Below are positions 2,329 to 62,864 of a DNA stretch of 64,000 nt, piece after piece. How positions within the stretch are numbered: position 1 is the stretch's first letter; each line of letters starts with the position of its first letter. Location of the stretch: the NCBI GenBank assembly GCA_041662565.1, contig JBAZSE010000005.1:402-64401 (forward strand), read 5' to 3'. The translations under genes were made by a program, and so were the position numbers. Below the pieces are notes generated by a model. That model searched no databases and was not told the origin of the DNA. It worked only from the letters and a program-made list of their open reading frames with translations. The stretch comes from Patescibacteria group bacterium. GTDB taxonomy: Bacteria; Patescibacteriota; Patescibacteriia; UBA1558; UBA10009.

Positions 2329-4226
2329 TGTTTAACGATAATCGGAAAAAAAATCACGGGCTGGTTGATTTGCGATCAGCCAATGTGGTTAAAAAAGCTG
2401 CCACCTCTGCCCCAAAGCATGATGATTTTTTAAGCACGCCCCACGGCCCGGAACACCGTAAAATTACCCGCCGGCCGATTAAAAAGCGCTCGTCTTTTTT
2501 ATTGTTTTTAATCGTTTTACTGCTTGTTTTAGCCGGCGCTTCTATTGCCAGTTTTTTTATCTTTGATCAAGGAAAAGGCGATCAATCATTGCGCTTAACT
2601 TTAGCCGCCGCTAAAAGCGTTTCTTCGGGGGAAGAAGTAACCCTGGAAATCGGCTACGAAAATTTGGATACCATTGCTTTACAAAAAATGCAGGTGGTGG
2701 TGGAATATCCCAAGGGCTTTTATTTTAATTCCGCCTCACAGGAACCCGTTAATCAAGAGAGTAATATTTGGAATTTGCCGGATTTGGGAGTTGGACAAAA
2801 AGGTACGCTTTCTATTAATGGTCAGTTGATTGGCAAGGTAGAGGAAAATAAAGAATTTAAAATGACTTTTCAGTATCGCCCGAGTAATTTTAATTCCGAT
2901 TTCAGCGAAACTCTTGCCAAAGCCATTAAGATTAGCCAGACCTTGTTTCCTGTAAATTTAACGGCACCTGAAAAAATTGAAGAAGGCCAAACAGTAAATT
3001 TTAAAGGCGATTTTAAAAATGAAGCCAAGCAGGATTTAAATAATTTATTTTGGAGTTTTGATTTAGGCGAAGCTTTTATGCCTTTGTCTTTAACTCCAAC
3101 CACTTCCATAAACTACCAATGGTCTTTACCCGCATTGCCACCAGGTGAAAAAAAAGATATTTTGGTTGAAGGAAAAATAAATTCCGCAGTTGCCAACCCC
3201 TTGCCTTGGTATTTTAAAATCTGGCAGAAAGTTGATTTTAAAGGCAATCAGCAGGAACGTATTCTATACGAGCAATCAGGCCAAGTTGAAGTTGTTGCGC
3301 CGGTTTTAAAAGTTGGCTTGGAACTTTCTTCACCCGATAAAAAAATCAATTGGGGCGATGAAGTTGATTTAAAGCTGACTTACGAAAATATAGGCAAGAT
3401 TGATGTTAAGGAAGCGGTGTTAAAATTAGCTTTAAACCAGTATATTGATTGGCCAAGGTACAAAAACCAAACCAATGCCACCATAGATGGTAACACTTTA
3501 ATTTGGCTTTCCAAAAGCGGAAATGCCACTGTTGGCCTTTCAAATATCCCAGTTGGCACAAAAGGCGAACTTTTGATAACCGTACCGTTTGTTTTGGAAC
3601 CTAAGGATTTAATGGATTATTCGCCCGATGAAGCCAAGTTGGAGGCAACAGCTTCGGCTATGATTAAATATAATGATCAGGAGTTGAATTTTAACAGCGA
3701 AAAATTGCTTTTGCCTTTAATCAGTGCGGCGCGTTTGCAGGCCGAGGCCAGGTATTATTTGGATTCAACCCCGCTAAGCGGGGCAAGTACCAAAGTAGGC
3801 AGCGGTCCTTTGCCTCCGGTAGTTGGTCAAGAAACAAAATATCGGATTTACTGGAAGCTATTTACCGGCTCAAGCGGTTTAAGCAACGTGGCGGTTAAAG
3901 CCAGCTTGCCTTCTTATATTAATTTTGTTGGGGGCGCTGATAATCCCACCTTGGGCACACCTTTAAAATTTGATTCCGCCACGCGTGAAGTTTCGTGGGA
4001 AATTAATGAGGCAGCGCCTAACACCGGTTTAATGGCTAGTTTTGATGTTAGTGTTAAACCCTCAACCGATCAGGTTAATCAATTGCTAATCTTAAGCAAT
4101 CCCGCCATGCTTAACGCCCAGGAAAAAGATAGCAATAATTTTATTTCCAAAACCACAAATTTGTTAACTTCCGATTTAACAGCCGATTTGCAAGCCAAGG
4201 GCAAGGGCAGGGTAATGGTAAAATAA
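2328..4226 (+). CDS. Hypothetical membrane-anchored protein: basic cytoplasmic N-terminus, one TM helix, then repeated extracellular beta-sandwich-like (DUF11/CARDB-like) segments
   Basis: A hydrophobic helix (FLLFLIVLLLVLAGASIASFFIF) follows a Lys/Arg-rich N-terminus, and the extracellular part has recurring similar blocks. The ATG at 2328 is preferred over the TTG at 2325. Confidence 0.5.
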   Translation: MFNDNRKKNHGLVDLRSANVVKKAATSAPKHDDFLSTPHGPEHRKITRRPIKKRSSFLLFLIVLLLVLAGASIASFFIFDQGKGDQSLRLTLAAAKSVSSGEEVTLEIGYENLDTIALQKMQVVVEYPKGFYFNSASQEPVNQESNIWNLPDLGVGQKGTLSINGQLIGKVEENKEFKMTFQYRPSNFNSDFSETLAKAIKISQTLFPVNLTAPEKIEEGQTVNFKGDFKNEAKQDLNNLFWSFDLGEAFMPLSLTPTTSINYQWSLPALPPGEKKDILVEGKINSAVANPLPWYFKIWQKVDFKGNQQERILYEQSGQVEVVAPVLKVGLELSSPDKKINWGDEVDLKLTYENIGKIDVKEAVLKLALNQYIDWPRYKNQTNATIDGNTLIWLSKSGNATVGLSNIPVGTKGELLITVPFVLEPKDLMDYSPDEAKLEATASAMIKYNDQELNFNSEKLLLPLISAARLQAEARYYLDSTPLSGASTKVGSGPLPPVVGQETKYRIYWKLFTGSSGLSNVAVKASLPSYINFVGGADNPTLGTPLKFDSATREVSWEINEAAPNTGLMASFDVSVKPSTDQVNQLLILSNPAMLNAQEKDSNNFISKTTNLLTSDLTADLQAKGKGRVMVK

Positions 4227-4237
4227 GAAATTGTTCT

Positions 4238-4378
4238 TGCTTTGCTCCGGATGAAATTAAATTTTCCATACTCGCACCCTCCTTCGTCTCGCCAGGGTCT
4301 CGCCTGCAGCTCGCCCTGGCTCGCTTGGGGGCACCCGCTCGTATGAAGAAAATTTAATTTCATCCGTCGCTCGCAAAT
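4238..4378. repeat. GC-rich TIR-flanked palindromic intergenic element, family A copy 1
   Basis: Perfect 18-bp TIRs GGATGAAATTAAATTTTC / GAAAATTTAATTTCATCC. Core CCCTCCTTCGTCTCGCC, then stem GCCAGGG/CCCTGGC around loop TCTCGCCTGCAGCTCG. Confidence 0.8.
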
Positions 4379-4395
4379 CTTTTTAAAACATTGTT

Positions 4396-6901: not shown

Positions 6902-8284
6902 ATGACTAAAAACATTCAAGAAGAAGGTGCTATGGATAAACTGGTTTCTTTGGCCAAAAGGCGGGGTTTTGTTTTTCAATCCTCCGAACTTTACGGAGGC
7001 ATCAATTCCATCTACGATTTCGGCCCCTTGGGCGTGGAATTAAAAAATAATATCAAGCGTGAATGGTGGAAAGCCATGGTTCAATGTCGGGATAATGTAG
7101 AGGGCCTGGATTCGGGCATTTTAATGCATCCCAAAATTTGGGAGGCCAGCGGGCATTTGGCCGGTTTTACCGATCCCTTGGTTGATTGTAAAGCTTGCAA
7201 AAAAAGATTTCGAGCCGATCATTTGCTGGAATCCAAAGGTTTAAAACCCGATTTTAGACCGGTTAGTTTTGCCCAAGAAGGCATTGCCTGTCCGGAATGC
7301 GATGGCGAGCTTACCAGTGTTAGGGATTTTAATTTAATGTTTAAAACCCAAATGGGTGCGGTTGAGGGCCAAACAGCCGAAATATATTTAAGGCCCGAAA
7401 CCGCACAGGGCATTTACGTTAATTTTTTGAACGTTTTAAATTCTTCCAGGCAAAAAGTGCCGTTTGGCATTGCCCAAATCGGTAAGGCCTTTAGAAATGA
7501 AATAACCCCGGGCAATTTTATTTTTAGGATGCGCGAATTTGAACAGATGGAAATGCAGTTTTTTGTTAAACCCGAAGATGCCACCAAGTGGTTTGAATAT
7601 TGGCAGCAGCAAAGAATGAATTGGTATCTGGATTTAGGGGTTAATAAGGATAAATTAAAATTCAGGCAGCACCGTAGCGATGAATTGGCTCATTACGCCA
7701 AAGCGGCGGTTGATGTGGAATATGATTTTCCGTTTGATCAGCGTGAAATGGAAGGCATCCATAACCGCGGAGAATGGGATTTATCGCGCCACCAACAATT
7801 TTCCGGCAAAGATCTTCATTACCAGGATTTGTTAACCAAAGAAAAATTCATTCCTTACGTGATTGAAACATCCGGCGGTGTTGACAGGGCCACTTTAATG
7901 TTTTTGCTTAATGCCTATACCGAGGTAGAAACCAGAAGCGGGGATGAAGAAGCCAAGCATGAAACCGAGGTGGTGTTAAAATTGGATAAAAGATTAGCCC
8001 CGATTAAAGTGGCTATTTTACCCTTGTCCAAAAAATTGTCCGAACCGGCCATGGAGATTTACAAAGATTTACGCCAAAATTATCGCTGTGATTTTGATGA
8101 TTCCGGCAGTGTGGGCAAAAGGTACCGCCGCCAAGATGAAATCGGTACGCCGTATTGCATAACTTTTGATTTTGATTCGGTAGAAGACCATAAAGTAACG
8201 GTCAGGGATCGCGATACCATGGCGCAAGAAAGAATCGCTATTGCCGAGTTAAAGGATTATTTAAGAGAAAAATTAGGGTTTTAA
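6902..8284 (+). CDS. glyQS: Glycyl-tRNA synthetase (dimeric alpha2 type)
   Basis: Class II aaRS of the GlyRS alpha2 type: FQSSELYGGINSIYDFGPLGVELKNNIKREWW. Confidence 0.9.
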   Translation: MTKNIQEEGAMDKLVSLAKRRGFVFQSSELYGGINSIYDFGPLGVELKNNIKREWWKAMVQCRDNVEGLDSGILMHPKIWEASGHLAGFTDPLVDCKACKKRFRADHLLESKGLKPDFRPVSFAQEGIACPECDGELTSVRDFNLMFKTQMGAVEGQTAEIYLRPETAQGIYVNFLNVLNSSRQKVPFGIAQIGKAFRNEITPGNFIFRMREFEQMEMQFFVKPEDATKWFEYWQQQRMNWYLDLGVNKDKLKFRQHRSDELAHYAKAAVDVEYDFPFDQREMEGIHNRGEWDLSRHQQFSGKDLHYQDLLTKEKFIPYVIETSGGVDRATLMFLLNAYTEVETRSGDEEAKHETEVVLKLDKRLAPIKVAILPLSKKLSEPAMEIYKDLRQNYRCDFDDSGSVGKRYRRQDEIGTPYCITFDFDSVEDHKVTVRDRDTMAQERIAIAELKDYLREKLGF

Positions 8285-8286
8285 TA

Positions 8287-8425
8287 TTGCGAGCGACGGG
8301 TGAAATTAAATTTTCTTCATACGAGCGGGGCCCGCGAGCGAGCCCGGGCGAGTTTCAAACGAGACCCGGGCGAGACGAAGGAGGGTTGCGAGCATGGAAA
8401 ATTTAATTTTACCTGGAGCAAAGCA
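8287..8425. repeat. GC-rich palindromic element, family A copy 2 (inverted orientation relative to copy 1)
   Basis: About 90% identical to the reverse complement of 4238-4378, including flanks. The internal stem is GCCCGGG/CCCGGGC, a compensatory change relative to copy 1. Confidence 0.8.
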
Positions 8426-8439
8426 ATGATTGCTAAATT

Positions 8440-11445: not shown

Positions 11446-12880
11446 AAAATTTTATATTACCACCGCCATACCTTATGTTAATGCCCGTCCGCATATTGGC
11501 TTTGCTTTGGAAGCAGTGCAGGCCGATGCTTTGGCTAGATATCATCGCACTTTAGGCGAGGATGTATTCTTTTTAACCGGCACGGATGAAAACAGCTTAA
11601 AAAACGTTCAAGCCGCGGAAAAAGAAGGCATTAGCGCGCAAGAGCTGTGCGATCGCAACGCCAAAGTTTTTTTGGAATTAAAAAACGCCCTTAATTTGTC
11701 ATTTGATTCATTTATTAGAACAACCGAAGAACGCCATTTTAGCGGGGCGCAAAAATTATGGTCTGGGTGCCAGCCACAAGATATTTATAAAAAGAAGTAT
11801 CAGGGTTTTTATTGCGTTGGCGGCGAAGCTTTTTATCTGGAAAAAGATTTAATCGAAGGGTTATGCCCGGAGCATAAAACCGCGCCCGATTTGATTGAAG
11901 AAGAAAATTATTTTTTCAAGCTTTCAAATTATCAGGATAAATTATTAAAATTAATTGAATCAGACGAGTATAAAATTACGCCAGCCACCAAAAAAAATGA
12001 AATTACCAGCTTTATTAAAATGGGATTGGAAGATTTTAGCATTTCCCGCTCAACTGCTCGGGCTCATGGCTGGGGAGTAAGTGTTCCAGACGATGCCTCG
12101 CAAATAATGTATGTCTGGTTTGACGCTTTATCTAATTATATTACAGCTTTGGATTATTCATCCGAAGGCGACTTATTTAAAAAATATTGGCCGGCCGATG
12201 TGCATGTGGTAGGCAAGGGGATTATCCGGTTCCACGCTGTTTACTGGCCAGCCATGTTAATGAGCGCCGGTTTGGAAGTTCCTAAAGAATTGTTTGTTCA
12301 TGGATATGTTAATGTTGGTGGAGAAAAAATGAGCAAGAGTTTGGGTAATGTGATTGATCCTTTTGAATTGGTTTCCAAATACGGCACCGATGCCGTTCGT
12401 TATTATCTGCTCAAGCAAATTCATCCGGTAGAAGATTCCGATTTTACGATTGAAAAATTTGAAGAAGTTTATAACGCGGATTTGGCCAATGGGCTGGGGA
12501 ACCTCGTTTCCAGAACAGCTAATTTGATTGAAAAGAATTTTGATGGGAAACTTAAAGCTCAAAACTTAATTGAGCTCAGCTCGATAGAGCTAAAAACTAA
12601 TTTTGATAAATATATTAAAGAATATAGATTTGATTTGGCGCTTAAGGAAATTCAGGAAATGATTACGGCTACCGACCAGCTGATTGATCAACAAAAGCCC
12701 TGGGTTTTGGTTAAAACCGATTTAAAAAAAGCAGAAGAAGTTTTGGTTCAGGCAGTTAGCCAAATTTTATCCGTAGCCGAAAGTTTAAAGCCATTTTTAC
12801 CTCCTACAGCGGATAAAATCATCGTTCAGTTTACTGCCGAAAAGATAGTTAAAGGCGAATCGTTGTTTCCAAGAATTTAA
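11438..12880 (+). CDS. metG: Methionyl-tRNA synthetase; carries an in-frame palindromic mini-element insertion at 12554-12604
   Basis: YITTAIPYVNARPHIGFA (HIGH region) and KMSKSLGN. The inserted peptide is ..KAQNLIELSSIELKTNF.. Confidence 0.9.
   Translation: MSKKFYITTAIPYVNARPHIGFALEAVQADALARYHRTLGEDVFFLTGTDENSLKNVQAAEKEGISAQELCDRNAKVFLELKNALNLSFDSFIRTTEERHFSGAQKLWSGCQPQDIYKKKYQGFYCVGGEAFYLEKDLIEGLCPEHKTAPDLIEEENYFFKLSNYQDKLLKLIESDEYKITPATKKNEITSFIKMGLEDFSISRSTARAHGWGVSVPDDASQIMYVWFDALSNYITALDYSSEGDLFKKYWPADVHVVGKGIIRFHAVYWPAMLMSAGLEVPKELFVHGYVNVGGEKMSKSLGNVIDPFELVSKYGTDAVRYYLLKQIHPVEDSDFTIEKFEEVYNADLANGLGNLVSRTANLIEKNFDGKLKAQNLIELSSIELKTNFDKYIKEYRFDLALKEIQEMITATDQLIDQQKPWVLVKTDLKKAEEVLVQAVSQILSVAESLKPFLPPTADKIIVQFTAEKIVKGESLFPRI
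12554..12604. repeat. Palindromic mini-element copy inserted in-frame within metG
   Basis: AAAGCTCAAAACTTAATTGAGCTCAGCTCGATAGAGCTAAAAACTAATTTT; both arms match the reverse complement of the 1602-1647 copy. Confidence 0.75.
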
Positions 12881-12885
12881 GTTTT

Positions 12886-13032
12886 TAAAGCGAGCATGGG
12901 CAAGTAAAATTTTTTTCGGTCTGAGACGGGTCCCCCCGAACGAGCCTGGGCGAGCTACAAGCGAGACCCTGGCGAGTTGAGGGAGGGAGGCGAGGACAAA
13001 AAAATTTTTGCTTGGCCAGGCTAGCGTTCAAC
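12886..13032. repeat. GC-rich palindromic element, subfamily B
   Basis: Core GGCGAGTTGAGGGAGGGAGG; near reverse complement of the 18287-18421 copy. Confidence 0.75.
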
Positions 13033-17955: not shown

Positions 17956-18219
<264 letters not shown>

Positions 18220-18286
18220 TCGATTTACACTCAGAAGGTTTAAATTTTTTGGCCTTCTGAAGTAAGAAGATTATTTAAAATTTAAA

Positions 18287-18421
18287 CTAGCGCAAGGTAA
18301 AAAAAATTTTTTGTCCTCGATTCCCTCCCTCAACTCGTCGGGGTCTCGTCTGGAACTCGCCCCGACTCGTTCGGGGGGATCCCGTCTCGGACCGAAAAAA
18401 TTTTTCTTACCTCGCGCTAGC
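18287..18421. repeat. GC-rich palindromic element, subfamily B, located inside the atp operon between atpE and atpF
   Basis: TIR CTAGCGCAAGGTAAAAAAAATTTTTT / AAAAAATTTTTCTTACCTCGCGCTAG. Internal stem GTCGGGG/CCCCGAC around loop TCTCGTCTGGAACTCG. Confidence 0.8.
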
Positions 18422-18441
18422 TATTATCTACATATAACATT

Positions 18442-24744: not shown

Positions 24745-27700
24745 ATGACTTACGCTGATTCTCTTAATCCGGAGCAAAAAAAGGCCGTAGAATACACCAA
24801 GGGCCCGCTATTAATCGTGGCCGGCGCCGGTACCGGTAAAACAACGGTTATCTGCGAACGGATCAATTTTTTAATTACCAAAAAAAATTTACAGCCCAAT
24901 CAAATTTTAGCCCTAACTTTTACCGAAAAAGCCGCCGCCGAAATGGAAGAAAGGGTGGATAAAGCCCTGCCTTACGGTTATATCGATTTATGGATTTCCA
25001 CCTTCCACAGTTTTGCCGAAAGATTATTACATGAGCATGGTTTGGATATCGGCTTAAGCGATGATTTTAAATTATTGGATCAAACCGCTTCCTGGCTGTT
25101 GGTGCGCAATAATTTGGATAAATTCAATTTGGATTATTACCGACCGCTGGGCAATCCCAATAAATTCATCCATGCGTTGTTAAAGCATTTTTCCAAATGC
25201 AAAGATGAACTTATCAAACCAAAAGATTATTTGGACTACGCTGAATCATACCGTTTGGATAATGATTTAAGAAAAGATGAATCCGCCTTCGCCAAGGCTT
25301 CGTCGGACCAAGGGGATGCCGCCATGGAAGTTAAGCGTTTGGAAGAACTAGCTAATGCTTATCATGTTTATCAGCAGTTGTTGCTGGATAATAATTATTT
25401 GGATTTTGGCGACTTAATTAATTATGTGTATGAGCTTTTTTTAAAGCGTCCGCAAATTTTAAAAAAATACCAAGAGCAGTTTAAATACATTTTGGTTGAT
25501 GAATTTCAGGATACCAATTACGCCCAGTACCAATTAATCAAGCTTTTGGCCGGAACAAAAAATAACGTCACGGTAGTGGGGGATGACGACCAATCAATTT
25601 ATAAATTCCGCGGGGCTTCTATTTCTAATATTTTGGAATTTAAAAAAGATAACCCCAAATGCTTGGAAATTTATTTAACCACCAATTACCGGACCAAGCA
25701 GAATATTTTGGATGTTGCCTATAAGTTTATCCAGCTTAATAATCCCAATCGGTTGGAAGCGCAGTTAAAAATCAAAAATAAATCGAGCTCAGCTCGACAA
25801 AGCTCAAAGCTCAAGACTCCAGCCAAAAGTTCAAGATCAAAATTTACCAAAGAGTTAATCGCTTCCAGAACAGGGCAGGGGATTATTGAGCATTTGCACG
25901 CGCCAACGCTGGATGACGAGGTGGCAATGGTGATCAATAAAATCGGCCAGCTTTATCAAAAAGAACAGGGTCTTTCGTGGTCCAATTTTGCCATTTTAGT
26001 TAGAGCTAACGATCAGGCCAGGCCGTTTATCGAGGCCCTGGAAAGAGCGGCTGTGCCTTACCAATTTGTGGCTTCCCGCGGGCTTTATGCCAAACCCTTG
26101 GTGTTAAATTTAATTGCTTTTCTGCGCTTGTTGGATAACTACCATGAATCCGATGCTATGTACCGCTATTTAACTTTACCGATTTTTGCCTTACCTCAAG
26201 CGGAATTGATTAAAATCACCCACGAAGCCAATAAAAAAAGATGGACTTTATACGAAACCGTTAAACAGGTTCGTTACTTATTGCATCTATCGCCTGATGC
26301 GCAAAAAGGTCTGGATGTGGCTTTAAATTTTTTGGAAAAATATCTGGCCCGCGCCAAAACGGAAAAATGCAGCCGTTTGGTTTTTGATTTTTTAAACGAA
26401 TCAAATTATTTAAAATATATCGATACCTTACCCGAAGGCAAAAAGCGCCAAGAATTTTCTTATCTTTCCCAGTTTTACAAGCGCATTAAAACTTTTGAAG
26501 AAATCAATGATGATAAATCGGTTAAAAATTTCCTCAACCAGTTGGGTTTGGAATTGGAATCAGGCGAGCAGGGTGATCTGGCGGCCTTAAACGAAGATGA
26601 AGGTCCGGAAATGGTTAAAGTGATGACGGTGCACAGTGCCAAGGGTTTGGAATTTAAATATGTTTTTATCGTTAATTTGGTGGATATGCGCTTTCCCACT
26701 CGTGAGCGGCACGATCCTATCCAATTGCCCGATAAATTAATTAAAGAAATTGTGCCGGAAGGGGATATTCATTTGCAGGAAGAAAGACGATTGTTTTACG
26801 TTGGTTTAACCCGTGCTCGCGACGGTTTGTTTTTAACTTCGGCCGAAGATTACGGCGGGGTTAAAAAGAAAAAGATTTCCGTTTTTTTAACCGACCTTGG
26901 GTTCAAGCAGCCGGAGCATTTAACTTTTGTTAAAGAAAAATTGGAAACAGTGGAACAAGTGCAAGGTACTGCCAAAGAAACGATTAAAGAATTTTTGCCA
27001 GCCAAATTTTCTTTCACCCAAATCAAGGATTTTCTTGCTTGTCCTCGGTCGTATTATTACAAATACATATTAAAAGTCCCTATGCAGGGTAATAATTATT
27101 TTAGCTTTGGTTCTTCCATTCACCTGTCTTTGCAAAAATTTTACGAAGAAGTCAAAAGAAGAAAGGGAAGCGCGCAAACCGGTTTGTTTGGTCCGGTTTC
27201 GCAACCGAATTTGTTTGGCCAGAGTAATGTTTTAACTCAAGGGGACCCCTCGACGCGGCTCGGGGCAGTTCTCAAATCCTCTAGCCCAAAGTTAATTCGC
27301 GATTTAATTAGTTTAGAGGAGTTAATTAAATTTTACCAAGAGAACTGGATCGAGGACTGGTATGCTTCAAAAGAGCAGAAAGAAAAATATTTCAAATTAG
27401 GCAAGGAAATTTTAAAAAACTTTTACCATAGCGATTATTTGGAGCAATCCAATCCGGTTTATTTGGAAAAAGGTTTTGGTATTAAAGTGGGTGAATTTAG
27501 TTTAACCGGTAAAATTGATAGAATAGACCGCGTGCAAAACGGTTTAAAGATTATTGATTATAAAACCGGCCAACCCAAGGAAAAATTGGAAGCCGATGAT
27601 AAAGACCAGTTGTTAATTTACCAAATGGCTGCTGCGCAATTGTTTAACGAACCAATAGGTGAGCTGGCTTATTATTATTTGGAAAACGATACTCAAGTGG

Positions 27701-41548: not shown

Positions 41549-41578
41549 CCCAGCCCTTCGCAAAGGGCTGGGTTTTTT
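41549..41578 (+). terminator. Rho-independent terminator after rplA
   Basis: CCCAGCCCTT-CGCAA-AGGGCTGGG followed by TTTTTT. Confidence 0.8.
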
Positions 41579-43648: not shown

Positions 43649-43664
43649 AGTTATTATGAGTTAC

Positions 43665-43743
43665 GAGGCCTTGCAAGTAAAAATTTATTTGCGGGACGCT
43701 CGATTACTCGCGAAAGCAAATAAATTTTTCTTGCTCGGCCTCG
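43665..43743. repeat. Short (about 80 bp) palindromic element between thyA and folA
   Basis: GAGGCC TTGCAAGTAAAAATTTATTTGC ... GCAAATAAATTTTTCTTGC TCGGCCTC: nested inverted repeats around a GC core. Confidence 0.65.
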
Positions 43744-43746
43744 CTA

Positions 43747-44565
43747 TTAAATAGCTATCGGGGCTTTAATGCCCGGATCAGGATTATAATTTTCTAAAGT
43801 AAAATCTTCAAACTTAAAATCAAAAATATTTTTAATTTCCGGATTGATTTTCATAGTTGGCAATGCCTTTGGCGTTCTGGATAGCTGTAATTTGACCTGG
43901 TCCAGATGATTGCTGTAAATATGCACGTCGCCAAAAGTATGCACAAAATCACCAAGTTCTTTGTTAGTTACTTGCGCCATCATCATAGTTAATAAAGCGT
44001 ATGAAGCAATGTTAAAAGGTACGCCCAAAAATACATCGGCACTACGCTGGTATAATTGGCAGGATAATTTATTGTTGGCCACATAAAATTGGAACATGGT
44101 GTGGCAAGGAGGGGGAGCGGTTTTTTTGCCGCTAATCAATTGCTGCAAATCAGCCACATTCCAGCCCGAAACAATCAATCTGCGGTCATTGGGATTCTTT
44201 TTGATCCTTTCCACTACATCGGCAATTTGGTTGATTTTTAGGCCATCTTTGCCTTCCCAGGCAGTCCATTGTTTGCCATAAATCGGGCCAAGATCGCCAT
44301 TTTCATCAGCCCATTCATCCCAAATGCCCACACCGTTATCATTTAGGTATTGAATATTGGTATCGCCGCGCAAAAACCACAGCAATTCATAAATAATTGA
44401 TTTTAAATGGACTTTTTTGGTGGTCATTAGTGGAAAACCCTCGGCTAAATTATAGCGCCGTTGCGCGCCAAATAGGGAAATGGTGCCCGTACCTGTGCGG
44501 TCGGCCTTTTCCACGCCTTTCTCCAAAATTTCCTGCAATAAAGAAAGGTATTGTTGCATAAACAA
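43747..44565 (-). CDS. thyA: Thymidylate synthase
   Basis: [31 protein letters not shown], and the active-site region [11 protein letters not shown]. Confidence 0.95.
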
Positions 44566-44687: not shown

Positions 44688-45293
44688 ATGAAAGAAGGTT
44701 TATTCATCGTTATTTACGGCATTAATAACCTGGGCAAATCAACTCAGGCCGAGTTTTTGGTGGAGTCGTTTGATAAAGCGGGTTTACCGGCGCAATATCT
44801 AAAATATCCCGTTTATGAACTTGCCCCAACCGGCCCTAAAATAAATCAGGTTTTAAGGGGAGAAAATGGCCAGCAAATGTCCGAGGAAGAACTGCAGGCA
44901 ATGTACACTCAAAACAGGCGTGATTTTCAACCCCAGCTCATTAAACTTATTGCCGAAGGAATAAATGTTGTAGCCGAAGATTATATTGGCACCGGTTTGG
45001 CTTGGGGCAGTGCCAAGGGCGCTGATTTGGAAAAATTAATTGCCAGCAATAAGGGTTTACTAAAACCGGATATAGAAATTTTGCTTGACGGCGAAAGATT
45101 TATTCAAGCCAAAGAAGTTGGTCATTTGCATGAATCAAATGATGAGTTGGTGGAAAGGTGTCGAAATATTCATTTGGAATTGGCTGCCAAGTTTGGTTGG
45201 GCAATTGTTGATGCCAATCAAAAAGTAGAAGAAGTTCATGAAGATATTTTGAAAGCAATAGAGAAAAAAATAAAAGAATTAAATACTATTTAA
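44688..45293 (+). CDS. tmk: Thymidylate kinase
   Basis: P-loop GINNLGKST, a DRY-equivalent region EDYIGTGLAWG and lid similarity to Tmk. Confidence 0.75.
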   Translation: MKEGLFIVIYGINNLGKSTQAEFLVESFDKAGLPAQYLKYPVYELAPTGPKINQVLRGENGQQMSEEELQAMYTQNRRDFQPQLIKLIAEGINVVAEDYIGTGLAWGSAKGADLEKLIASNKGLLKPDIEILLDGERFIQAKEVGHLHESNDELVERCRNIHLELAAKFGWAIVDANQKVEEVHEDILKAIEKKIKELNTI

Positions 45294-45314
45294 TTTTAAT
45301 AAATTAATTTCACA

Positions 45315-46154
45315 ATGCAGGGCTTTACTCGCTTTGTGGCAAGAAAACATATGAGAAAAATTTTTCTCTTGTTGGCTTTGTTGGCTACGGCTATCTGGCC
45401 AGCCGGCAGTGTTATGGCCTGGAGTAATCCCAGCCACCCTTTTATGGTGGATAAAGCCGCCATTATTTTACAAAAAGATTTGGCAGCGTATATTAAAAAG
45501 TATCCTGATTTTAACAAGTATTTAAACACCTATCTGCCAAAAATTAAACAAGGTGCATCCGATGCCGATGCTTTTTCCACTACTGTTGGCAAAGAGGTTT
45601 ATAAATTTAAGGTCTTAGGCAAAAGTTATGAAATTTACATGCCAACCAGTGAACATTATTATGATGTGGCAACCGGCAAAGGAGCTTTAAAATATTTTAG
45701 ATCAGCCAGGCAAAAAGCCGATGAATATTATGCAACTGCCAAACAGAAATTTACCGAAAAAAAATATGATGACGCCTTTTTGTTTTTAGGCAGAGCAATT
45801 CATATGGTTCAGGATACTACCAATCCGCACCACACTCAAATCGGCGCCAGTGCCATTCTTAACTGGGAGGGTTTTTCCAATCACGCTTTTTCCAACCGGG
45901 AAAAATACAGCGTTGCTTCGGGCGGGATTTATACCGAGCCCAATATAGGCACCATGGTCCACAATAACGCCAATCTTTGCTCGGGTTATTTTAAGTATGT
46001 TGATGGCTTAAACAGATTGATTAAATGGATTAATTGGCCGGTTGATGATGATTATCCCAAGGCCGGTAACGCCTGTTTTTCCAGAGGCGAAAAAACAACA
46101 GCTGGTGCTGTTTACATGTTTTTAAAGGATGTTCTTAAGTTGCCAGCCAAGTAA
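45315..46154 (+). CDS. Secreted zinc-dependent phospholipase C / P1-nuclease-fold protein
   Basis: Signal peptide, then mature N-terminal WSNPSHPF (Trp1 zinc ligand), EHYYD, and FLFLGRAIHMVQDTTNPHHT matching the B. cereus PLC zinc-site pattern. Confidence 0.65.
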   Translation: MQGFTRFVARKHMRKIFLLLALLATAIWPAGSVMAWSNPSHPFMVDKAAIILQKDLAAYIKKYPDFNKYLNTYLPKIKQGASDADAFSTTVGKEVYKFKVLGKSYEIYMPTSEHYYDVATGKGALKYFRSARQKADEYYATAKQKFTEKKYDDAFLFLGRAIHMVQDTTNPHHTQIGASAILNWEGFSNHAFSNREKYSVASGGIYTEPNIGTMVHNNANLCSGYFKYVDGLNRLIKWINWPVDDDYPKAGNACFSRGEKTTAGAVYMFLKDVLKLPAK

Positions 46155-46184
46155 ATATATCATATGATTACATATAAACTCCTC

Positions 46185-46210
46185 GGCTCGTCGAGCTAAG
46201 CTCGATCTCG
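46185..46210. repeat. Core-only copy of the mini-element palindrome upstream of gatB
   Basis: GGCTCGTCGAGCTAAGCTCGATCTCGCC contains the perfect TCGAGCTAAGCTCGA. Confidence 0.55.
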
Positions 46211-46223
46211 CCTTACGTCGTTT

Positions 46224-48489: not shown

Positions 48490-48726
48490 ATCAGACGGCG
48501 CTAACGTAAAAATAAAAAAATTTGTAGCCGAGGACCGTTTAAGCCTTATCAAACGTGGCTTGAGAAAATTCAGAACGGCGGGGATAACTTAAATGAAAAA
48601 ATCGCAATTGATTGGCGCGTTCCGCAGGCAAGAATTTTTTTATTTTTACGATTAGCTATACCTAATTTAACGATGTGTGGCGCTTAGCGCCACAACCCCA
48701 GCGCTAAGCGCTGTGGATAAATACTA

Positions 48727-48755
48727 TTGACGGTCAATTTTTGAAAGAGTATTAT
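48727..48755 (+). promoter_or_regulatory. Candidate promoter TTGACG-N17-TATTAT driving a ~110-nt leader/sRNA that ends at a strong terminator
   Basis: Near-consensus hexamers. Upstream is a GC hairpin plus TGTGGATAA; downstream is the terminator at 48842-48870. Confidence 0.4.
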
Positions 48756-48841
48756 TATCCACAGTATGTTAAAACAAAACTTTAAATGGAAAGATAGGTT
48801 GAGCGTTACTCCAGGTTTAAGTTTTTCAAATTTTATCAATT

Positions 48842-48898: not shown

Positions 48899-49891
48899 AT
48901 GCACAAAAATGTTCTCCTGATTTCGGAGATTTTAAAAGCCGGCAGAGCAACGCTGGAAAATCGCGGTTTTATCGAGGTGGTTACCCCAAGAGTAGTAAGG
49001 GCAACAGGCGCCTGCGAAAACGTCAACACTTTGTTTGAAGTTTCTGTTGGCCAGGATTTTAAGTGGTTTGGTTCAAGTAGTTATTTGGCTCAAACAGGTC
49101 AGTTGTATTTGGAGGCCTTGGTGCCGGAATATAAAAAGGTTTATTGTTCCGGACCTTCATTTAGAGCCGAAGCCACAGTTGATGCCAGGCATTTAACCGA
49201 GTTTTTGATGATGGAAATTGAATTTGCCGGCGGTTTTGACCAATTGTTGATGGAAATTGAGGCCTTTGTTTCGGGTATTGCCAAAACGCTTGTAAACATC
49301 AGCCAAACGCAGGATTTGGGCTTAGGCGAGGAGAATTTAAAACGGCTAGCCACTTGCCCGGATGTTTTTACTAAATTAACTTATGATCAAGCCATTATTA
49401 AGTTGCAGGAATTAGGCGAATCAATTGCCTGGGGCGATGATATTAATTCGGCTAGAGAAAAGATTTTAGTGGAAAGCTTCGGCAACCAGCCAATGTTTAT
49501 TACCCGCTATCCCGATCCAATGGTGGATCATGGCAAAGAAATTGAAGTGGAAAAGTTTTTTAACATGTTGCCTGATGCCGAAAATCCCGGCCGAGTGCTT
49601 TCTAGCGATTTGATTTTGCCGTTTGCCGGTGAAGCGGTTGGATCGGCGGCTCGCGTTCATATTGCCGAAGAAATGGTTAGAAGATTGGAACATTCCAAAA
49701 TGTTTAAACGCTTGGAAGAAATGGGTGGCAGTTTAGCGGACTTTTCCTGGTATATTGATCGCCTTAAAGAAGGTAGCGTGCCCCATGCCGGCTGTGGTTT
49801 TGGCATGTCGCGCATTATCCAGTGGATTATGGGTACCAGAGACATTAGAGAAGCCGTTACCTTCCCATCAAACAAGGGGGGAATTATTTAG
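48899..49891 (+). CDS. Class IIb aaRS catalytic-core-only protein (AsnRS/AspRS paralog; candidate archaeal-type asparagine synthetase AsnA)
   Basis: Class II motifs 2 (FRAE...RHLTEFLMMEIEFA) and 3 (GCGFGMSRIIQWIMGTRDIREAVTFP), but no N-terminal anticodon-binding OB domain; 330 aa. Confidence 0.55.
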   Translation: MHKNVLLISEILKAGRATLENRGFIEVVTPRVVRATGACENVNTLFEVSVGQDFKWFGSSSYLAQTGQLYLEALVPEYKKVYCSGPSFRAEATVDARHLTEFLMMEIEFAGGFDQLLMEIEAFVSGIAKTLVNISQTQDLGLGEENLKRLATCPDVFTKLTYDQAIIKLQELGESIAWGDDINSAREKILVESFGNQPMFITRYPDPMVDHGKEIEVEKFFNMLPDAENPGRVLSSDLILPFAGEAVGSAARVHIAEEMVRRLEHSKMFKRLEEMGGSLADFSWYIDRLKEGSVPHAGCGFGMSRIIQWIMGTRDIREAVTFPSNKGGII

Positions 49892-50034
49892 AACAGTTTT
49901 TAGCTGGTTAGTTTGAATTAAAAAAGCCCAGCCCTTTTTAAAGGGTTGGGCTTTTAATTAATATATTTGAATTTGTATTTTAGACCTGAATTTGCTATTA
50001 TTACTCTAAATTTAGAGGTTATCGGTAAGAGCAC

Positions 50035-53000
50035 ATGAATAATATTTTGGAAGCAAATCAGGGGCAAACAAACTGCCAACAGCAATTGTTTTATTGGCTT
50101 AATTTATCAATTAGGGCTTCTATTTTTTTAGCCGCATTTTTTGTTTTGGGTTTTTTTCTTGTTCCCTGTAAAACTTTTGCCACTACATATTATGTTGACG
50201 CAGTCGATGGAGCAAATGCAAATAACGGAACTTCGGAAGGCACTGCTTGGAAAGATATAGGCAACGCTAGTGGCGTAAATGCTCGAATGTCTGGAGGAAC
50301 TATCCAAGCAGGTGATACCATTCTTTTTAAGCGCGGACAAACCTTTACTAATGGCGCCTCCGGTTTGGTTATTACTGTTAATGGCACGGCCGGCAATATT
50401 ATAACTTTTGACGCTTACGGTACAGGTGCTAATCCAATTATTAACGGCGGAACTAGGTCTATAGATTCACGTAATAGAAGTTACCTTACTTTTAACAATC
50501 TTACGCTTACTAATGCCACCCAATATGGACTTTTATTTGGTGTTACTGCACAAAACTATGTAACTTTTAATAATATTTCGGTATCAGCCACTCCTAAAGC
50601 TATGAGCTGGGGTGGCGTAACCTATACAAATATTACTATTAGCAATTCTTCTTTTGACGCCACTACCACGCTTTGGGAGCAGGCTGCAGCATCTGTATTT
50701 GTCAATTTAACGATTACCAATAGCACTTTTGCCAAAAACGTGTTTATGAATACTGCTGTTGCTAATCCTAATACCAATATTGATATTGATGGTTGCACTT
50801 TTACTTCTGGTATTTATATATATGCTACTAATGATTTAACAATTACCGATACAACTGCCAGTGGTTCCGGTATTGATCTTCGCGGCGTTACGGATGTAAC
50901 AATGGATAATATAACGGTTACCAATACCACCACGGCTAGCGGCATGGCCATTAGCAATAGCGGAGCCATGAGCTCCAGCGATATTACTTTGAGTAATTCG
51001 CATTTAGACAATAACAGCACAGGAGGAATCAACGGTAATGGATTAACCTTAACCGGAGATGGTAGTAATTTTACTGCCACAAATGTAACCGCTTCCAATA
51101 ACGGTGGCGATGGATTTAATGTTCACAATACTTGGAGCAATGTTGTTTTTGATAAATGCTTGGCCGAAAATAACGGCACCACGGCAGAAACAACCGATGG
51201 CGATGGTTTTACTTTTCACGAAACCTCTTCAGGAACAATTAAAAATAGTGTGGCTAAAAATAACAAAAAATTCGGCATTGGCCATGTAAGTAGTTCCGTA
51301 GTGGATATGTACAATAACATTATATATAGCACTTTGGATAATGCCAGACAATTGGTTTACCTGTACGATACCGGAACATATACATTTCAAAATAATACCG
51401 TTTATAGCGGAACGCAGGGCAGGGATACAGTTTTATTGGGCGGAACTGTAACCATGAAAAACAATATCATTTATGGCGGCGATAGCGGTTTAACCACCAG
51501 CGGTGGCACAGCCACCATGGATTATAATTTGGTTTATGGAGCTAATACGGGTTACGATGGCGTTTCAGCCGGTGCTCATGATTTATCCAGTAATCCGTTA
51601 TTTTTAAACAGCACTGGTAGCTATTCCACCACTACCGATTTTTTACTGGCCGCTACTTCTCCGGCTATTGATGCCGGTACAACCTTAAGCGCCACCTATG
51701 ATGATGCTAATCTCTATGGTTCTTCTTGGCCCAGCGTGGTTACCACCGCAGATCAGGATCTAAGCGGTTATGGCTGGGAAATGGGAGCTTTTATTTATCC
51801 CTACCCTCAAAAGCCAACAATTGGCACTCCTTCGGCAATATCTGCCACCTCTATCCGCTGGAATTTTACCGATGCTGCCAATGATGAAACAGGTTTTAGG
51901 ATTTACAATAATTCCTATGCTTTGGCGGTTTCTTCGGCTACTGCGGGCCTAACCTATCTTGACGAAACCGGCTTATCGGAAAATACCCAATATACAGGCA
52001 GATTTGCCACGGCTTACAATAGCTATGGCAATTCGGCTTCATCTTCTATTGCTACATCCAAGTATACCCTGGCTAATGCACCCTCTGATTTAGCCGCTAC
52101 TTGGGATAGTGACGGCAATATTATCTTAACCGTTGATTCTTTTCCCAATGATACCCTGGGTACCTCCGGCTACTATTTTGAAAATACCACCCGTGGCAGT
52201 AATTCTGGTTGGCTGCAAACAAATACCTGGCAGGATAATAATCTGGCTTGTGGCACCAATAATTACACTGTTAAATACAGAAACGGCAACAGTGTAGAAA
52301 CAACCACCGCTACTGCTTCTCAAACCAGAAGTTGCGGTGGAGGATTTGGTTCTATTGGTTCCTCATCTGGTTCCTCATCACCCAGTGACCCCCCTCAAAC
52401 AAATATTCCAGCTACAATTCCTACAGACACAGTTGTACCTACACCTAATGCGGAAGTAACCCCAAATCCCAATCTGCCTGAATCTAGTATAATCATGCAA
52501 ACAACAGTGGAATTTTTGGCTGATTCTTTTAATGAAGTTAGGAACATTGCTCAAGAACAGGAAGCTTTTCAAAATATTGCCAAGCGTTTGCCGGAAGCAA
52601 ATTTATTTACCCCAATCCAGCAACAAGCCCTCTCCAATTTTATCGTTTACGGCACTCTGGAAACTAAAAAACTGGGCTCAGGAGAGCGAGCCGGCAGTAT
52701 TTACTCCTTTCAATCGGCTTTTAACAAACTGCCTCAAACCGAACAAGATTGGAGTGATGTGCTTAAAATATCTTTGGGTAGATGGCCATCGCAAACTTCA
52801 TCAACCAAAGAAAACGCGGTTAAAATAGATTTTAAAACCATTTATCAACGAGAACCTCAAGATAGTAATTCTCAGGATCAAGTTGCTATTGATATTATGG
52901 CTTATGGTATTAGGCCACTAATTCGCAATCTTAACTCTGAAAAAATCGCATTTAAATACTTTAAAGCTATCTACGGCAAAATTCCTCAAAGTACCCTTGA

Positions 53001-53046: not shown

Positions 53047-53103
53047 AAGGCATGTTTTTCAAAATCAAATAGTGATTAAATGGCCTAAAATTATTTTATA
53101 ACT

Positions 53104-53139
53104 AAAAAACAGCATTTATCATTTAAGTGCTGTTTTTTT
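53104..53139. terminator. Bidirectional intrinsic terminator after the beta-helix protein gene
   Basis: ACAGCAT...GTGCTGT hairpin flanked by an A-run and a T-run. Confidence 0.75.
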
Positions 53140-53222
53140 GGTGTCCCCGGCAAGACCCCGAAGAAATTTCGCTAACGCTCAATTTTTCAGGGCAGGGTTT
53201 AAACTTTTCAAATTATATAAGA

Positions 53223-53299
53223 TGGTACGCCCAAGAGGATTTGAACCTCTAACCTTCAGCACCGGATTCTGACGCCCTATCCAGTTGAGCTATGGGCGC
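53223..53299 (-). tRNA. tRNA-Arg (anticodon CCG), CCA encoded
   Basis: Manual fold: acceptor GCGCCCA/TGGGCGT, D-arm GCTC-AACTGGATA-GGGC, anticodon loop ATCCGGT, T-arm AGAGG-TTCAAAT-CCTCT, and a 3' ACCA. Close to the E. coli tRNA-Arg(CCG) recalled from memory. Confidence 0.8.
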
Positions 53300-54197
53300 G
53301 TATTAGTTTTTTTGCCTGATTTTTGTTCTTCAGCCAAATTATCTTTTTATCTTTCTTAAACCAAGTCATCTGTCGTTTGGCAAATTGGCTAAGGGCAATA
53401 AGCAGTTTATTAAACATTTCATCATAAGTCAACTTGTTTTGCAAATATTGGGCCACAAAGCGGTATTCTAAACCAAAGGACTCCAATTTTTTCCACAATA
53501 ATCCGTTTTGGCGAAGTTTTTTAACCTCTTTAACCAGTCCATCCGTTAATTCCTTTTTTAACCTTAATTTTATTCTTTTAATTAATTTTTCCTTAGGCAA
53601 GGTTAACCCTAAAATTAAGCAATCATATTTTGGGGCATTAACTTTTAATTTTTGACTTTTAACTTTTAAGTTTATGCTTATTTCAATTTTTCTAACCAAC
53701 CTGACTTTATTCTGCCAATCCGATTGATTTAGAGTGATCTTATATTTTTTTGCCAATGTTTGCAGTTGAGCCAACGATTTTTTATTTAACTTTTTTCGTA
53801 ATTTAATATTTGGTTTACTTTGGGGCAAATTGTAACCATCAACAATTGCTTGAATATATAAGCCGGTGCCGCCAACCAAAAAGGGGAGCTTGCCTTTGCG
53901 CAAAACATCATCAATCGCCTTATAAGCTAATTTTTGATAGTTGGCCAAAGTAAATTGTTTTTTTGGACTAATAACATCAATTAGATGATAGGAAATTGGT
54001 TTTTTGGTTTTGTACTCTTGTAAATCCTTACCAGTTCCAATATCCATGCCTTGATAAACCTGGCGCGAATCAGCCGAAACAATTTCGCCATTAAAAGCCC
54101 TTGCCATTTTTACTGCCAGTTTGGTTTTGCCGGTTGCCGTTGGCCCTAGTATTACAATTAGTTTATTATTTGGCATTTTTAATCCGCTCGGGTGCAA
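53277..54197 (-). CDS. miaA: tRNA dimethylallyltransferase
   Basis: P-loop ILGPTATGKTKLAV. The likely true start is MPNNK at 54176. The 3' end of the ORF overlaps the tRNA-Arg gene by about 23 nt. Confidence 0.85.
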   Translation of the reverse strand: MHPSGLKMPNNKLIVILGPTATGKTKLAVKMARAFNGEIVSADSRQVYQGMDIGTGKDLQEYKTKKPISYHLIDVISPKKQFTLANYQKLAYKAIDDVLRKGKLPFLVGGTGLYIQAIVDGYNLPQSKPNIKLRKKLNKKSLAQLQTLAKKYKITLNQSDWQNKVRLVRKIEISINLKVKSQKLKVNAPKYDCLILGLTLPKEKLIKRIKLRLKKELTDGLVKEVKKLRQNGLLWKKLESFGLEYRFVAQYLQNKLTYDEMFNKLLIALSQFAKRQMTWFKKDKKIIWLKNKNQAKKLIRAHSSTG

Positions 54198-54300
54198 AAA
54201 AAATTTTCCTCGGACCCTCGACTCGTCGTCGGGGTACCCCCTCGGTAAAATTTTTTTTCACCCTCGCGTATTTAATAAAATTTTTTTACCCGCGTTCGTT
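54190..54300. repeat. GC-rich palindromic element (shorter variant) between miaA and thrS
   Basis: TIR GGGTGCAAAAAAAATTTT / AAAATTTTTTTTCACCC; core CCTCGGACCCTCGACTCGTCGTCGGGG. Followed by the CCCGCGTTCG motif shared with the 61786-61936 copy. Confidence 0.6.
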
Positions 54301-54462
54301 AAATATAAACTAAAATTTTATCGTTTTCTTTCTTTTAGCGTAACCCTTGCTGGTTTGCGCTTTGGCAATTTGCCCGGCCAGCGTTGCTCCTTTGGGAGCG
54401 CTTTTGGCTTTATCCAATATTTTTTGCCTTTTTTCCGCTTTGGTCAACATATTTTTAATATA

Positions 54463-61333: not shown

Positions 61334-61454
61334 ATTTGTATTTTACCTGCAAAAAATGGCTTTAGCAACCCGTGTTTCAGGCCAAAAAAACCGTTGTAAA
61401 TAAAAAGTAGAGACGCGCAATTGTGCGTCTCTACCATGAAATTGAAAAAATTGT

Positions 61455-61760
61455 TTAATTATCCGATTTGTTTTTTTTGGCAGCGGTTTTTTTGGCCTTT
61501 TTTTCCGCCACGTAATCAGCTACTTTTTTGCCTACTTCCATAACCGCGGCAAAAGTAGTGCCAAAATTAGCCACTTTTTCTTTGGATTTATCAAAAAAAT
61601 CTTTAATAGCATTTAAAGTGCCGGTAAATGTTTCCATGACCGAATTTATTTTTTTTAAAATCATGGCAAAATAATAAATCACCCAGCACAAAAAAATGGT
61701 AAACCATAAAACGCAGAAGGCGATTACTATATTTAATAGATCCTGGGAATTTTCTAACAT
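61455..61760 (-). CDS. Hypothetical small membrane protein with a Lys-rich C-terminal tail
   Basis: A single TM helix (VIAFCVLWFTIFLCWVIYYFAMIL), then an amphipathic region ending KKAKKTAAKKNKSDN. Confidence 0.45.
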   Translation of the reverse strand: MLENSQDLLNIVIAFCVLWFTIFLCWVIYYFAMILKKINSVMETFTGTLNAIKDFFDKSKEKVANFGTTFAAVMEVGKKVADYVAEKKAKKTAAKKNKSDN

Positions 61761-61785
61761 AGGTTTTTATTTTTAATTTATTAAT

Positions 61786-61936
61786 GCTCACTCGGTCAAG
61801 AAAAATTTTTCTATCCTCGGCACCCTCCTTCGTCTCGGCCTAGTCTCGTCTAAAACTCGCTAGGCGGGCGCATCATGTTGCGCCCCTACGGGTCCCGCCT
61901 CGGACAAAGAAAAATTTTTTCTTGTCCCGCGTTCGC
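61786..61936. repeat. GC-rich palindromic element, family A, between dnaE and a small minus-strand gene
   Basis: Core CACCCTCCTTCGTCTCGGCC. Stem GCCTAG/CTAGGC around loop TCTCGTCTAAAACTCG, i.e. the same architecture with a covarying stem. Flank AAAAATTTTT TIRs. Confidence 0.75.
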
Positions 61937-62009
61937 ATTTGATGTTCATTAATTTATTTTATTATACCACAATTCACCAAAAACAAAAAATGTGGTAAAA
62001 TAAAGCCAT

Positions 62010-62864
62010 ATGGTTGACTATCAAATCCATGATTTATCAGAAAGGCAGCTAAAATTTGGCTACTGGCTGTTAAATTATAAAGACCGCTTAAAAAAGATTT
62101 TACTCGGTTTTATAATTGCTTTAGGAGCAATCTTTTGGGGGCTGGCTATTTACGGCTTAGTTGTCTATTTGTCTTTTGGCGCCTCGGATCAGCAAATTGT
62201 TTTAGGCATTGTTAATAACAATATTGATTGGCAGAGTTTTAGAGAACGCAATAAACCTTTGGATTTAGTTTTTTCGGCTCCCGAACTTATTTATACCGGC
62301 AAGGGCAATTACGATATTGTGGCCCAGGCCTACAACCCCAATACCAGGAGGGGAATGGCTAAGCTGACTTATCAATTTATTGCGGATAATTTTACTTCGG
62401 CCACCGGTACCATTGTTATTTTACCTCAACAAAAAGTTTATTTATTAAGTTTGGCCAATCAAACAACCGGCCGGCTGGAAGCTCCGCAATTAAGCGTGCT
62501 GGGTCTGGCTTGGCAAAGGATCGGCGAACAGCCACAGGATCCTAATCTTCAACCTATTGGGCTGGATCAGATTAATTTTACAGCCGGCGATCTTAAAGAG
62601 CGGTCAGCGGTTTTATTTTCCGCGCGCAATAATACGTTAAAGAATTTTTGGACAGTTGGTTTTGAAGCCGTTTTATTTAACAATAACCGGATAGTCGGAG
62701 CCAACATTATTTTTGTTAATGAATTTTTAAGCGAAGAAACCAGGAATTTGGAAATGAGCTGGTTTGAATCATTGCCTGCGGTTACGCGGGTAGAAATTGT
62801 TCCGTTGGTGGATATTTACGACCCAACTGCCGTTTATTCTGTACCCGGGAAAGTCAATAAGTAG
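62010..62864 (+). CDS. Hypothetical membrane-anchored protein (284 aa) upstream of the SEDS gene
   Basis: One N-terminal TM helix and an extracytoplasmic domain. Confidence 0.45.
   Translation: MVDYQIHDLSERQLKFGYWLLNYKDRLKKILLGFIIALGAIFWGLAIYGLVVYLSFGASDQQIVLGIVNNNIDWQSFRERNKPLDLVFSAPELIYTGKGNYDIVAQAYNPNTRRGMAKLTYQFIADNFTSATGTIVILPQQKVYLLSLANQTTGRLEAPQLSVLGLAWQRIGEQPQDPNLQPIGLDQINFTAGDLKERSAVLFSARNNTLKNFWTVGFEAVLFNNNRIVGANIIFVNEFLSEETRNLEMSWFESLPAVTRVEIVPLVDIYDPTAVYSVPGKVNK

Follow-up and report, generated by a model that had tools for sequence, protein, structure and literature searches.

A family of palindromic repeats between housekeeping genes in Komeilibacteria, probably a non-autonomous mobile element

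The 64-kb stretch of Patescibacteria DNA analyzed here, which we refer to as the window, carries seven copies of a palindromic repeat of about 150 bp that is, as judged from Rfam and the searchable literature, previously undescribed, and that we call the CTCG family after its most conspicuous sequence motif. The copies are probably a lineage-restricted, non-coding and non-autonomous palindromic repeat of the MITE/REP/ERIC class. Candidate-phyla-radiation (CPR) bacteria have genomes of roughly 1 Mb with tight gene packing, and they are thought to be poor in mobile elements. Nothing relevant was found in the literature on MITE or REP elements in CPR bacteria or Patescibacteria, on Komeilibacteria, or on the terminal sequences of the repeat. 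Rfam scans, at the gathering threshold for the whole window and at an E-value threshold for two copies, gave no match to the family, with only a tRNA-Arg and noise returned; the family is not derived from tRNA or rRNA. The preliminary description of this DNA had stated that nothing comparable is annotated; this stands for Rfam and the searchable literature but not for the related genomes, which carry other palindromic families of comparable kind (discussed below).

A covariance model made from an 11-copy alignment (five full copies from the window and six from elsewhere) was run over the window with filters off. It matches five full-length copies (~150 nt, 114-153 bits) and two that are degenerate or short, which accounts for all seven loci first proposed (30.6-153 bits; Table 1). 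The loop motif GGGTCTCGYYTGNARCTCGC and the CCCTCC box CCCTCCYTCRNCTCG, which the preliminary description had listed among the shared features, are each found five times in the window, where 0.01 and 0.39 matches are expected, respectively. The copies range from 97 to 166 nt, occupy about 1.5% of the window, and have a GC content of 48-53% against about 40% window-wide. As originally described, all of them are intergenic and both orientations occur. They are dispersed 4-18 kb apart among housekeeping genes (recO, tgt, gpsA, glyS, metG, the atp operon, thyA-folA, thrS, miaA, and dnaE). Two further candidates were rejected: a model match at 52617-52775 (E 0.01) lies inside a 1003-aa ORF and was taken as chance, and a hairpin at 48505-48650 (E 0.5) was not accepted as a family member despite its similar architecture. 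The latter, ~145 nt long, combines a GC foot and a long A/T-rich stem (TAAAAATAAAAAAATT / AATTTTTTTATTTTTA) with GCCGAGGAC inside an otherwise unrelated interior; contig L018 of a sister genome, though syntenic, has a different hairpin in its place.

Table 1 Copies of the CTCG family in the window, and sites of a second palindromic family in the window's relatives and just past the window's right end (L numbers denote sampled loci).
Feature	Position	Strand	Model score	Neighbouring genes	Remarks
Full-length copy, subfamily A	4234..4383	+	153 bits	DUF11-domain gene (stop 4226), tgt (start 4396)	mRNA has CTCG strand
Full-length copy, subfamily A, inverted	8280..8429	-	143 bits	glyS (stop 8284), M16 peptidase gene (start 8440)	mRNA has CGAG strand
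Full-length copy, subfamily B	12881..13031	-	150 bits	metG (stop 12880), cvpA (start 13054)	
Full-length copy, subfamily B	18280..18430	+	145 bits	atpE (18007..18219), atpF (start 18442)	Within ATP synthase operon (Pfam, ORFs)
Short copy	43657..43753	+	30.6 bits, E 1e-5	thyA, folA (both minus strand)	Terminal arms retained, ~55 nt of core gone
Degenerate copy	54176..54280	+	46.7 bits, E 8e-10	thrS, miaA (both minus strand)	Core truncated; adjoins miaA start codon near 54175, as read from the sequence
Full-length divergent copy	61780..61945	+	114 bits	Divergent genes 61455..61760(-), 62010..62864(+)	Extra GC hairpin of ~20 nt inserted in core
Second family	L004:1124-1212				
Second family	L016:7754-7842				
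Second family	L018:1882-1988				
Second family	L019:2477-2604				
Second family	L019:9694-9782				
Second family	L020:14112-14200				
Second family	L032 (several)				
Second family	L028:4568-				

Each copy forms a single long, interrupted hairpin, as RNA or DNA and from either strand, with fold z-scores of -6.7 to -8.8 and arm pairing that spans about 65 positions; for the copy at 4234..4383 the RNA fold reaches -58.1 / -69.3 kcal/mol (z -6.9 / -8.8). From the outside in, the hairpin consists of a GC outer stem with CTCG boxes (TTGCTTTGCTCCGG...CCGTCGCTCGCAA is one example), an A/T-rich stem, and a GC-rich core that again contains CTCG boxes. The A/T-rich palindromes were initially mistaken for the ends of the element; they are mid-stems, and the GC-containing outer stem lies beyond them. 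The division into two subfamilies is supported, as copies 4238 and 8287 (subfamily A) are 89% identical and have the mid-stem GAAATTAAATTTTC/GAAAATTTAATTTC, while subfamily B has stems of the A5-7T5-8 type. When 11 copies are aligned, 93% of the cells in 39 pairs are standard pairs, and 18 of the 39 pairs show compensatory changes on both sides compared with 7 or fewer in slid controls; none of 500 shuffles reached the observed score. The termini are constant and the core is variable, as seen in the window copies at 43657 and 54176 and at L016:8981-9108 and L019:7529-7702, where the arms are retained and the cores are unrelated. Conserved termini combined with a variable interior are the usual pattern in non-autonomous transposons.

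No conserved coding capacity is evident in the copies, which differ by indels, and the sole ORF found in one of them is not shared by the others. This 94-aa ORF, 4079-4363(-), starts within copy 4238 at an ATG that follows an AAGGAGG by 6-9 nt on the CGAG strand, and it extends antisense into the DUF11 gene. A mini-ORF reading of the AAGGAGG and ATG in subfamily A was dropped because subfamily B lacks the ATG, and the repeat itself probably gave rise to a spurious ORF call here. Gene callers should be used with care on these genomes, where ORFs get extended into the repeats.

An indication of how the copies arose comes from related genomes, in which the gene order around the copy sites is conserved. 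The spacer between the DUF11 gene and tgt measures 169 nt in the window, as opposed to 17 nt in L022 and 6 nt in L025, and in L031, whose Tgt is 79% identical, the two genes overlap (TAATG). Between glyS and the M16 peptidase gene there are 155 nt in the window, compared with overlapping calls in L022, L023, L025, and L034 (~17 nt in L022 when the conserved start is aligned). Similarly, the metG-cvpA spacer is 173 nt in the window and 18-24 nt in L020, L022, L023, and L034, and the atpE-atpF spacer is 222 nt in the window and 60 nt in L034, where the element is absent. The covariance model finds no copy in the loci of these relatives, a weak match in L032 (E 0.012) being to a different element. 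Presence and absence at orthologous sites can thus be followed at four sites against L020, L022, L023, L025, L031, and L034. The Komeilibacteria MAG JAUYIT01 is especially informative, as it has a copy of the family at one locus (L004) and none at the window's sites (L020); the family therefore predates the split, and the window copies are most simply later insertions. In some relatives the same sites hold a different palindromic family, which points in the same direction. From these alignments, the copies at the four sites (DUF11-Tgt, GlyRS-M16, MetRS-CvpA, and atpE-atpF) are most likely insertions, a polarity of gain rather than loss that rests on parsimony, and it looks like short spacers have been opportunistically colonized by selfish palindromes. 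The original suggestion of a REP-, Correia-, or MITE-type element is borne out to this extent: the family is an interspersed non-coding hairpin repeat with further copies elsewhere, and relatives have the orthologous sites either empty or filled with something else. Comparison of presence and absence had also been proposed at the level of strains. Relatives do lack copies at the four sites, but there is no polymorphism within the population, since three other assemblies are 99.9-100% identical and have the same spacers; the case for mobility consequently rests on relatives at about 70-80% identity.

Several marks of known transposition systems were looked for in addition. Across 15 copies no target-site duplication of at least 3 nt was found at offsets of -4 to +4, and a 2-nt TA duplication is inseparable from the A/T-rich flanks. 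No autonomous partner with the same inverted repeats was detected in the window and 35 further loci (about 400 kb), where arm pairs separated by more than 200 nt and solo arms are both absent; this negative is weak, as the part of the host genome that was covered amounts to about 64 kb. A tblastn search with the Y1_Tnp of L025 returned no Y1/RAYT gene in the window or in the element-bearing loci. In the relative from which the query was taken (L025/L026) a Y1_Tnp gene lies between ileS and recO, with no copy of the family in the ~20 kb sampled there. This IS200/RAYT-like gene (L025:5241-5948, L026:1332-1949) encodes a tandem peptide repeat in its interior (SWFADISQPPSAGKH...), and the corresponding DNA recurs 3' of tgt in the spacer L025:9560-9781.

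Beyond the window, the family appears to have a narrow distribution. A scan of 185,579 species genomes with the core pattern gave 13 matches, of which one, in JAUYIT01, is a true copy; the other 12 fall in unrelated lineages outside the Patescibacteria and were taken as chance. Among JGI metagenomes the core pattern matched five contigs, all from sample Ga0082335, and the covariance model added two further divergent copies in contigs of that sample to give seven copies there; the further copies that the preliminary description had asked for thus exist in related genomes. Viral contigs yielded zero core-pattern matches. The window's Tgt is annotated 'Patescibacteria group bacterium', and its nearest homologs include a 77%-identical Tgt annotated as Candidatus Komeilibacteria. 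The family is so far restricted to a narrow Komeilibacteria clade, in which it occurs in at least three related genomes. The copy at 12881-13031 is 81-88% identical to four non-orthologous copies from Ga0082335, and blocks of syntenic DNA shared by the window and the Ga0082335 contig L018 are 70-85% identical. A similarity between species that is at or above the syntenic level fits either a conserved source lineage or purifying selection.

Taken together, we propose that the family spreads, or once spread, much as transposons do, with an enzyme encoded outside the sampled DNA acting in trans and with source copies selected to retain their hairpin arms and boxes. Because most copies separate genes that are co-transcribed in relatives, we infer that each copy is transcribed within a polycistronic mRNA, where it would fold as a ~65-bp interrupted hairpin in either orientation. 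Such a hairpin is presumably tolerated, and by analogy with other bacterial repeats it is probably at most an mRNA processing or stability signal, either as a target of a double-strand RNase or as a barrier to 3' exonucleases; it is unlikely to work as a terminator. Such roles in mRNA processing and stability have been shown elsewhere for ERIC, Correia, and REP sequences. The presence of long RNA hairpins inside essential operons (ATP synthase and thyA-folA), whether tolerated or used, constitutes a natural experiment, and the family can also serve as a marker for typing Komeilibacteria strains and lineages.

A stronger role for the host is conceivable, in which the hairpins are selected as cis-acting RNA elements that punctuate operons. 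The hairpin in a polycistronic mRNA would direct RNase III/RNase E-type processing or block 3' exonucleases and would thereby adjust how strongly adjoining cistrons are expressed relative to each other, as with atpE versus atpF-C. This explanation is compatible with a mobile origin, and we consider it unlikely. It would account for pairing that is maintained by compensatory changes, for the fact that either orientation yields a hairpin, and for the position of one copy directly 3' of atpE, the gene for the most abundant ATP synthase subunit. The copy between thyA and folA also bears on this reading. Contig L018 is syntenic with positions 39.4-49.9 kb of the window and contains, in the same orientation, a full-length copy (L018:5369-5520) orthologous to the short copy of the window. 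The window copy has lost ~55 nt of its core and its arms are still paired, with compensatory differences between the two species (CAAG/CTTG vs GAAC/GTTC). Persistence of this hairpin across a species split, with compensatory changes in its arms, could reflect a function at the level of the host. On the other hand, G·U mismatches are as frequent as A·C mismatches, with no link to the transcribed strand, overlapping genes work at the same sites in close relatives, and other lineages have different families there, which points to opportunistic insertion.

The feature most worth pursuing is the set of one-strand, helically phased CTCG boxes. All 15 copies have 4-11 CTCG and 0-1 CGAG on the same strand, and in the 11 aligned copies CTCG occurs 91 times, when 10 are expected, and CGAG once. 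The boxes sit on both arms and are opposed in the hairpin; since they face each other, nearly every arm mismatch on the CTCG strand is T·C, C·T, or C·C. Seen from the complementary strand, a pair of boxes becomes CGAG/CGAG, with tandem G·A between C-G pairs, and in 15 of 15 copies this complementary strand folds better, by 3-17 kcal/mol (median ~11). Box columns are also the best conserved (0.90, compared with 0.82 for stems and 0.75 for other unpaired positions), and the excess over the stems is not predicted by a purely selfish model.

These properties raise the prospect that the boxes serve a dedicated protein as a strand-specific recognition element. The protein could be a single-strand DNA transposase of the HUH type, a nucleoid protein that binds duplex DNA, or an RNA-binding protein for which tandem G·A pairs on the CGAG strand are the signal. 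The strand bias of the boxes, the nearly uniform pyrimidine·pyrimidine mismatches, the consistently better fold of the CGAG strand, the conservation of the box columns, and a spacing of the core boxes of 11, 11, and 10 nt, or about one helical turn, all speak for such an element. On the other side, the asymmetry may be largely inherited from a single ancestor, as the 11 sequences are related, the conservation excess is modest, and the periodicity follows automatically from a 7-bp stem plus a 7-nt loop. Furthermore, no candidate protein was found in the window or the element-bearing loci by Pfam and tblastn, and the copies take both orientations, within a single replichore as well as with respect to transcription. 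We therefore regard a dedicated reader of the boxes as very unlikely. A broader version, also quite unlikely, is that the boxes define a new class of hairpin element and are read by a strand-specific machine, which would be a single-strand DNA transposase or an RNA-binding or RNA-processing protein, and that the element has been co-opted by streamlined CPR bacteria as operon punctuation. If the boxes are indeed a recognition code, the family would point to a mobilizing or RNA-processing enzyme in these uncultured hosts.

Orientation relative to transcription is close to 50:50, with the CTCG strand in the mRNA for 6 copies and the CGAG strand for 6 (7 with L004). Pairing covaries, but the lack of a fixed orientation and of any bias in wobble pairs toward the mRNA strand makes a strand-specific RNA gene or riboregulator unlikely. 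The idea that the copies are intrinsic, possibly bidirectional terminators or a family of independently transcribed small RNA genes, which a very stable, intergenic, GC-rich hairpin between A- and T-runs might suggest, is hardly tenable, because a consensus scan found no terminator or promoter at any copy, the T-run precedes the GC core and the A-run comes after it with both paired in the stem (the reverse of a terminator), copies sit in units that need read-through (atpE-atpF, thyA-folA, and pairs that overlap in relatives), orientation is random, and Rfam gives no match. An outward TTGNCC '-35' in the arms of B-type copies was also considered; it was set aside since it is missing from subfamily A and nothing scored as its -10 counterpart. 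An integron attC array or a CRISPR array was ruled out by the dispersal of the copies between housekeeping genes in both orientations.

The CTCG family is not the only palindromic repeat in these genomes. A second, highly conserved family of roughly 80-150 nt, GTCATT[G/C]CGAG...CTCG[C/G]AATGAC (GTCATTGCGAG...CTCGCAATGAC), for which we know of no name, occurs in every relative sampled. The window itself contains no match, although the family is present just past the window's right end in the same genome (L028). This second family fills the glyS-M16 junction in L020 and the metG-cvpA, cvpA-tatD, atpE-atpF, and atpA-atpG junctions in L032, and a third type of palindrome, made of C-runs and G-runs (ACCCCCACCCAACCTTCCCC...GGGGGAGGAGAGGAGGGGGT), is located at L023:6041-6175, upstream of tgt, and at L032:15395-15490. 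Judging from these alignments, the same gene junctions are independently filled by other palindromic families in related genomes. Nor are the CTCG copies the only strongly GC-rich intergenic DNA of the window, as had been believed, since GC-rich intergenic hairpins also occur at 41549-41578, 48680-48720, and 61407-61434. The last is a 28-nt near-perfect palindrome, GTAGAGACGCGCAATTGTGCGTCTCTAC, that forms a terminator-like hairpin after gene 61455..61760(-) and occurs once in the window; it begins with GTAG, like REP elements, and is identical at L004:4196-4223 in a different Komeilibacteria MAG, where it apparently lies within an ORF.

Other observations were made along the window. A 47-nt palindromic repeat with the core TCGAGCTNAGCTCGA is found at 1598-1644, 12552-12598, and 25765-25811; one copy lies across the ileS stop and the recO spacer, and two are within ORFs. 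When MetRS is aligned with four relatives, the metG copy maps to a hypervariable loop with many indels, and the third copy is inside a UvrD/PD-(D/E)XK helicase-nuclease gene. By analogy, this repeat may be an in-frame palindrome insertion like the RPEs of Rickettsia. A promoter-like block (TTGACG, 17 nt, TATTAT) within an inverted repeat TGTGGATAA...TTATCCACA is common to both species (window 48690-48770 and L018:9400-9480); it lies 5' of the class II aaRS-like gene 48899..49891, and the bracketed block may be an operator. In the otherwise syntenic L018, window positions 45255-46223 with the 279-aa ORF 45315..46154 have no counterpart, which implies a gene-sized indel. Finally, at about 50000-56000 the cumulative GC skew stops rising, and around 50-53 kb the genes shift from mostly plus to mostly minus, next to tRNA-Arg(CCG) at 53223-53299; this region may be a replichore boundary.

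The two palindromic families of the clade share junctions (MetRS-CvpA, atpE-atpF, and GlyRS-M16) and a TTGCGAGCGAC-like string that is present in the termini of the second family and in subfamily A, and the second family gives the weak model match mentioned above. In contrast to the CTCG family, however, it consists of two or three short GC hairpins, with no A/T stem and no periodic CTCG core. Among known elements, ERIC/IRU sequences are similar in size (ERIC being imperfect palindromes of ~127 bp) and are likewise long, imperfect, non-coding hairpins at transcribed intergenic sites including operons, in either orientation and with internal deletions or insertions; no transposase is known for them and they leave no clear target duplication. 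The CTCG copies agree with this description as imperfect palindromes of ~100-150 bp with indel variants in either orientation, their transcription being inferred from operon context. They have no known sequence similarity to ERIC/IRU, and Rfam, the one library searched, returned no repeat-element family. In addition, the hosts of ERIC/IRU are enterobacteria and vibrios, whereas the CTCG family occurs in Patescibacteria and is distinguished by its A/T-rich mid-stems and by CTCG boxes confined to one strand.

Correia/NEMIS elements of Neisseria and MITEs such as Nezha and RUP resemble the CTCG family as 100-160-bp elements with terminal inverted repeats that are present or absent between related genomes, form subfamilies with internal indels, are co-transcribed, and are able to form double-stranded RNA; the CTCG copies, too, are short (<300 bp) and non-coding with terminal inverted repeats. 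Correia elements differ in that they duplicate a defined TA, carry an IHF site, and have promoters that point outward, and MITEs in that their inverted repeats match those of a parent insertion sequence; the searches described above brought none of these to light in the CTCG family. REP, BIME, and REPIN sequences, which are mobilized by RAYT (Y1) transposases, are also extragenic palindromes with strand-specific conserved bases by or in a hairpin; they leave no target duplication and have proposed roles in mRNA stability. However, REPs are single hairpins of 20-40 nt with a conserved 5' tetranucleotide, are usually clustered or arranged as doublets, and are linked to a single-copy RAYT gene, whereas the CTCG family, with no Y1 gene in the element-bearing DNA, has a single composite hairpin of ~150 nt as its unit and carries CTCG in the stems rather than GTAG at the 5' end.
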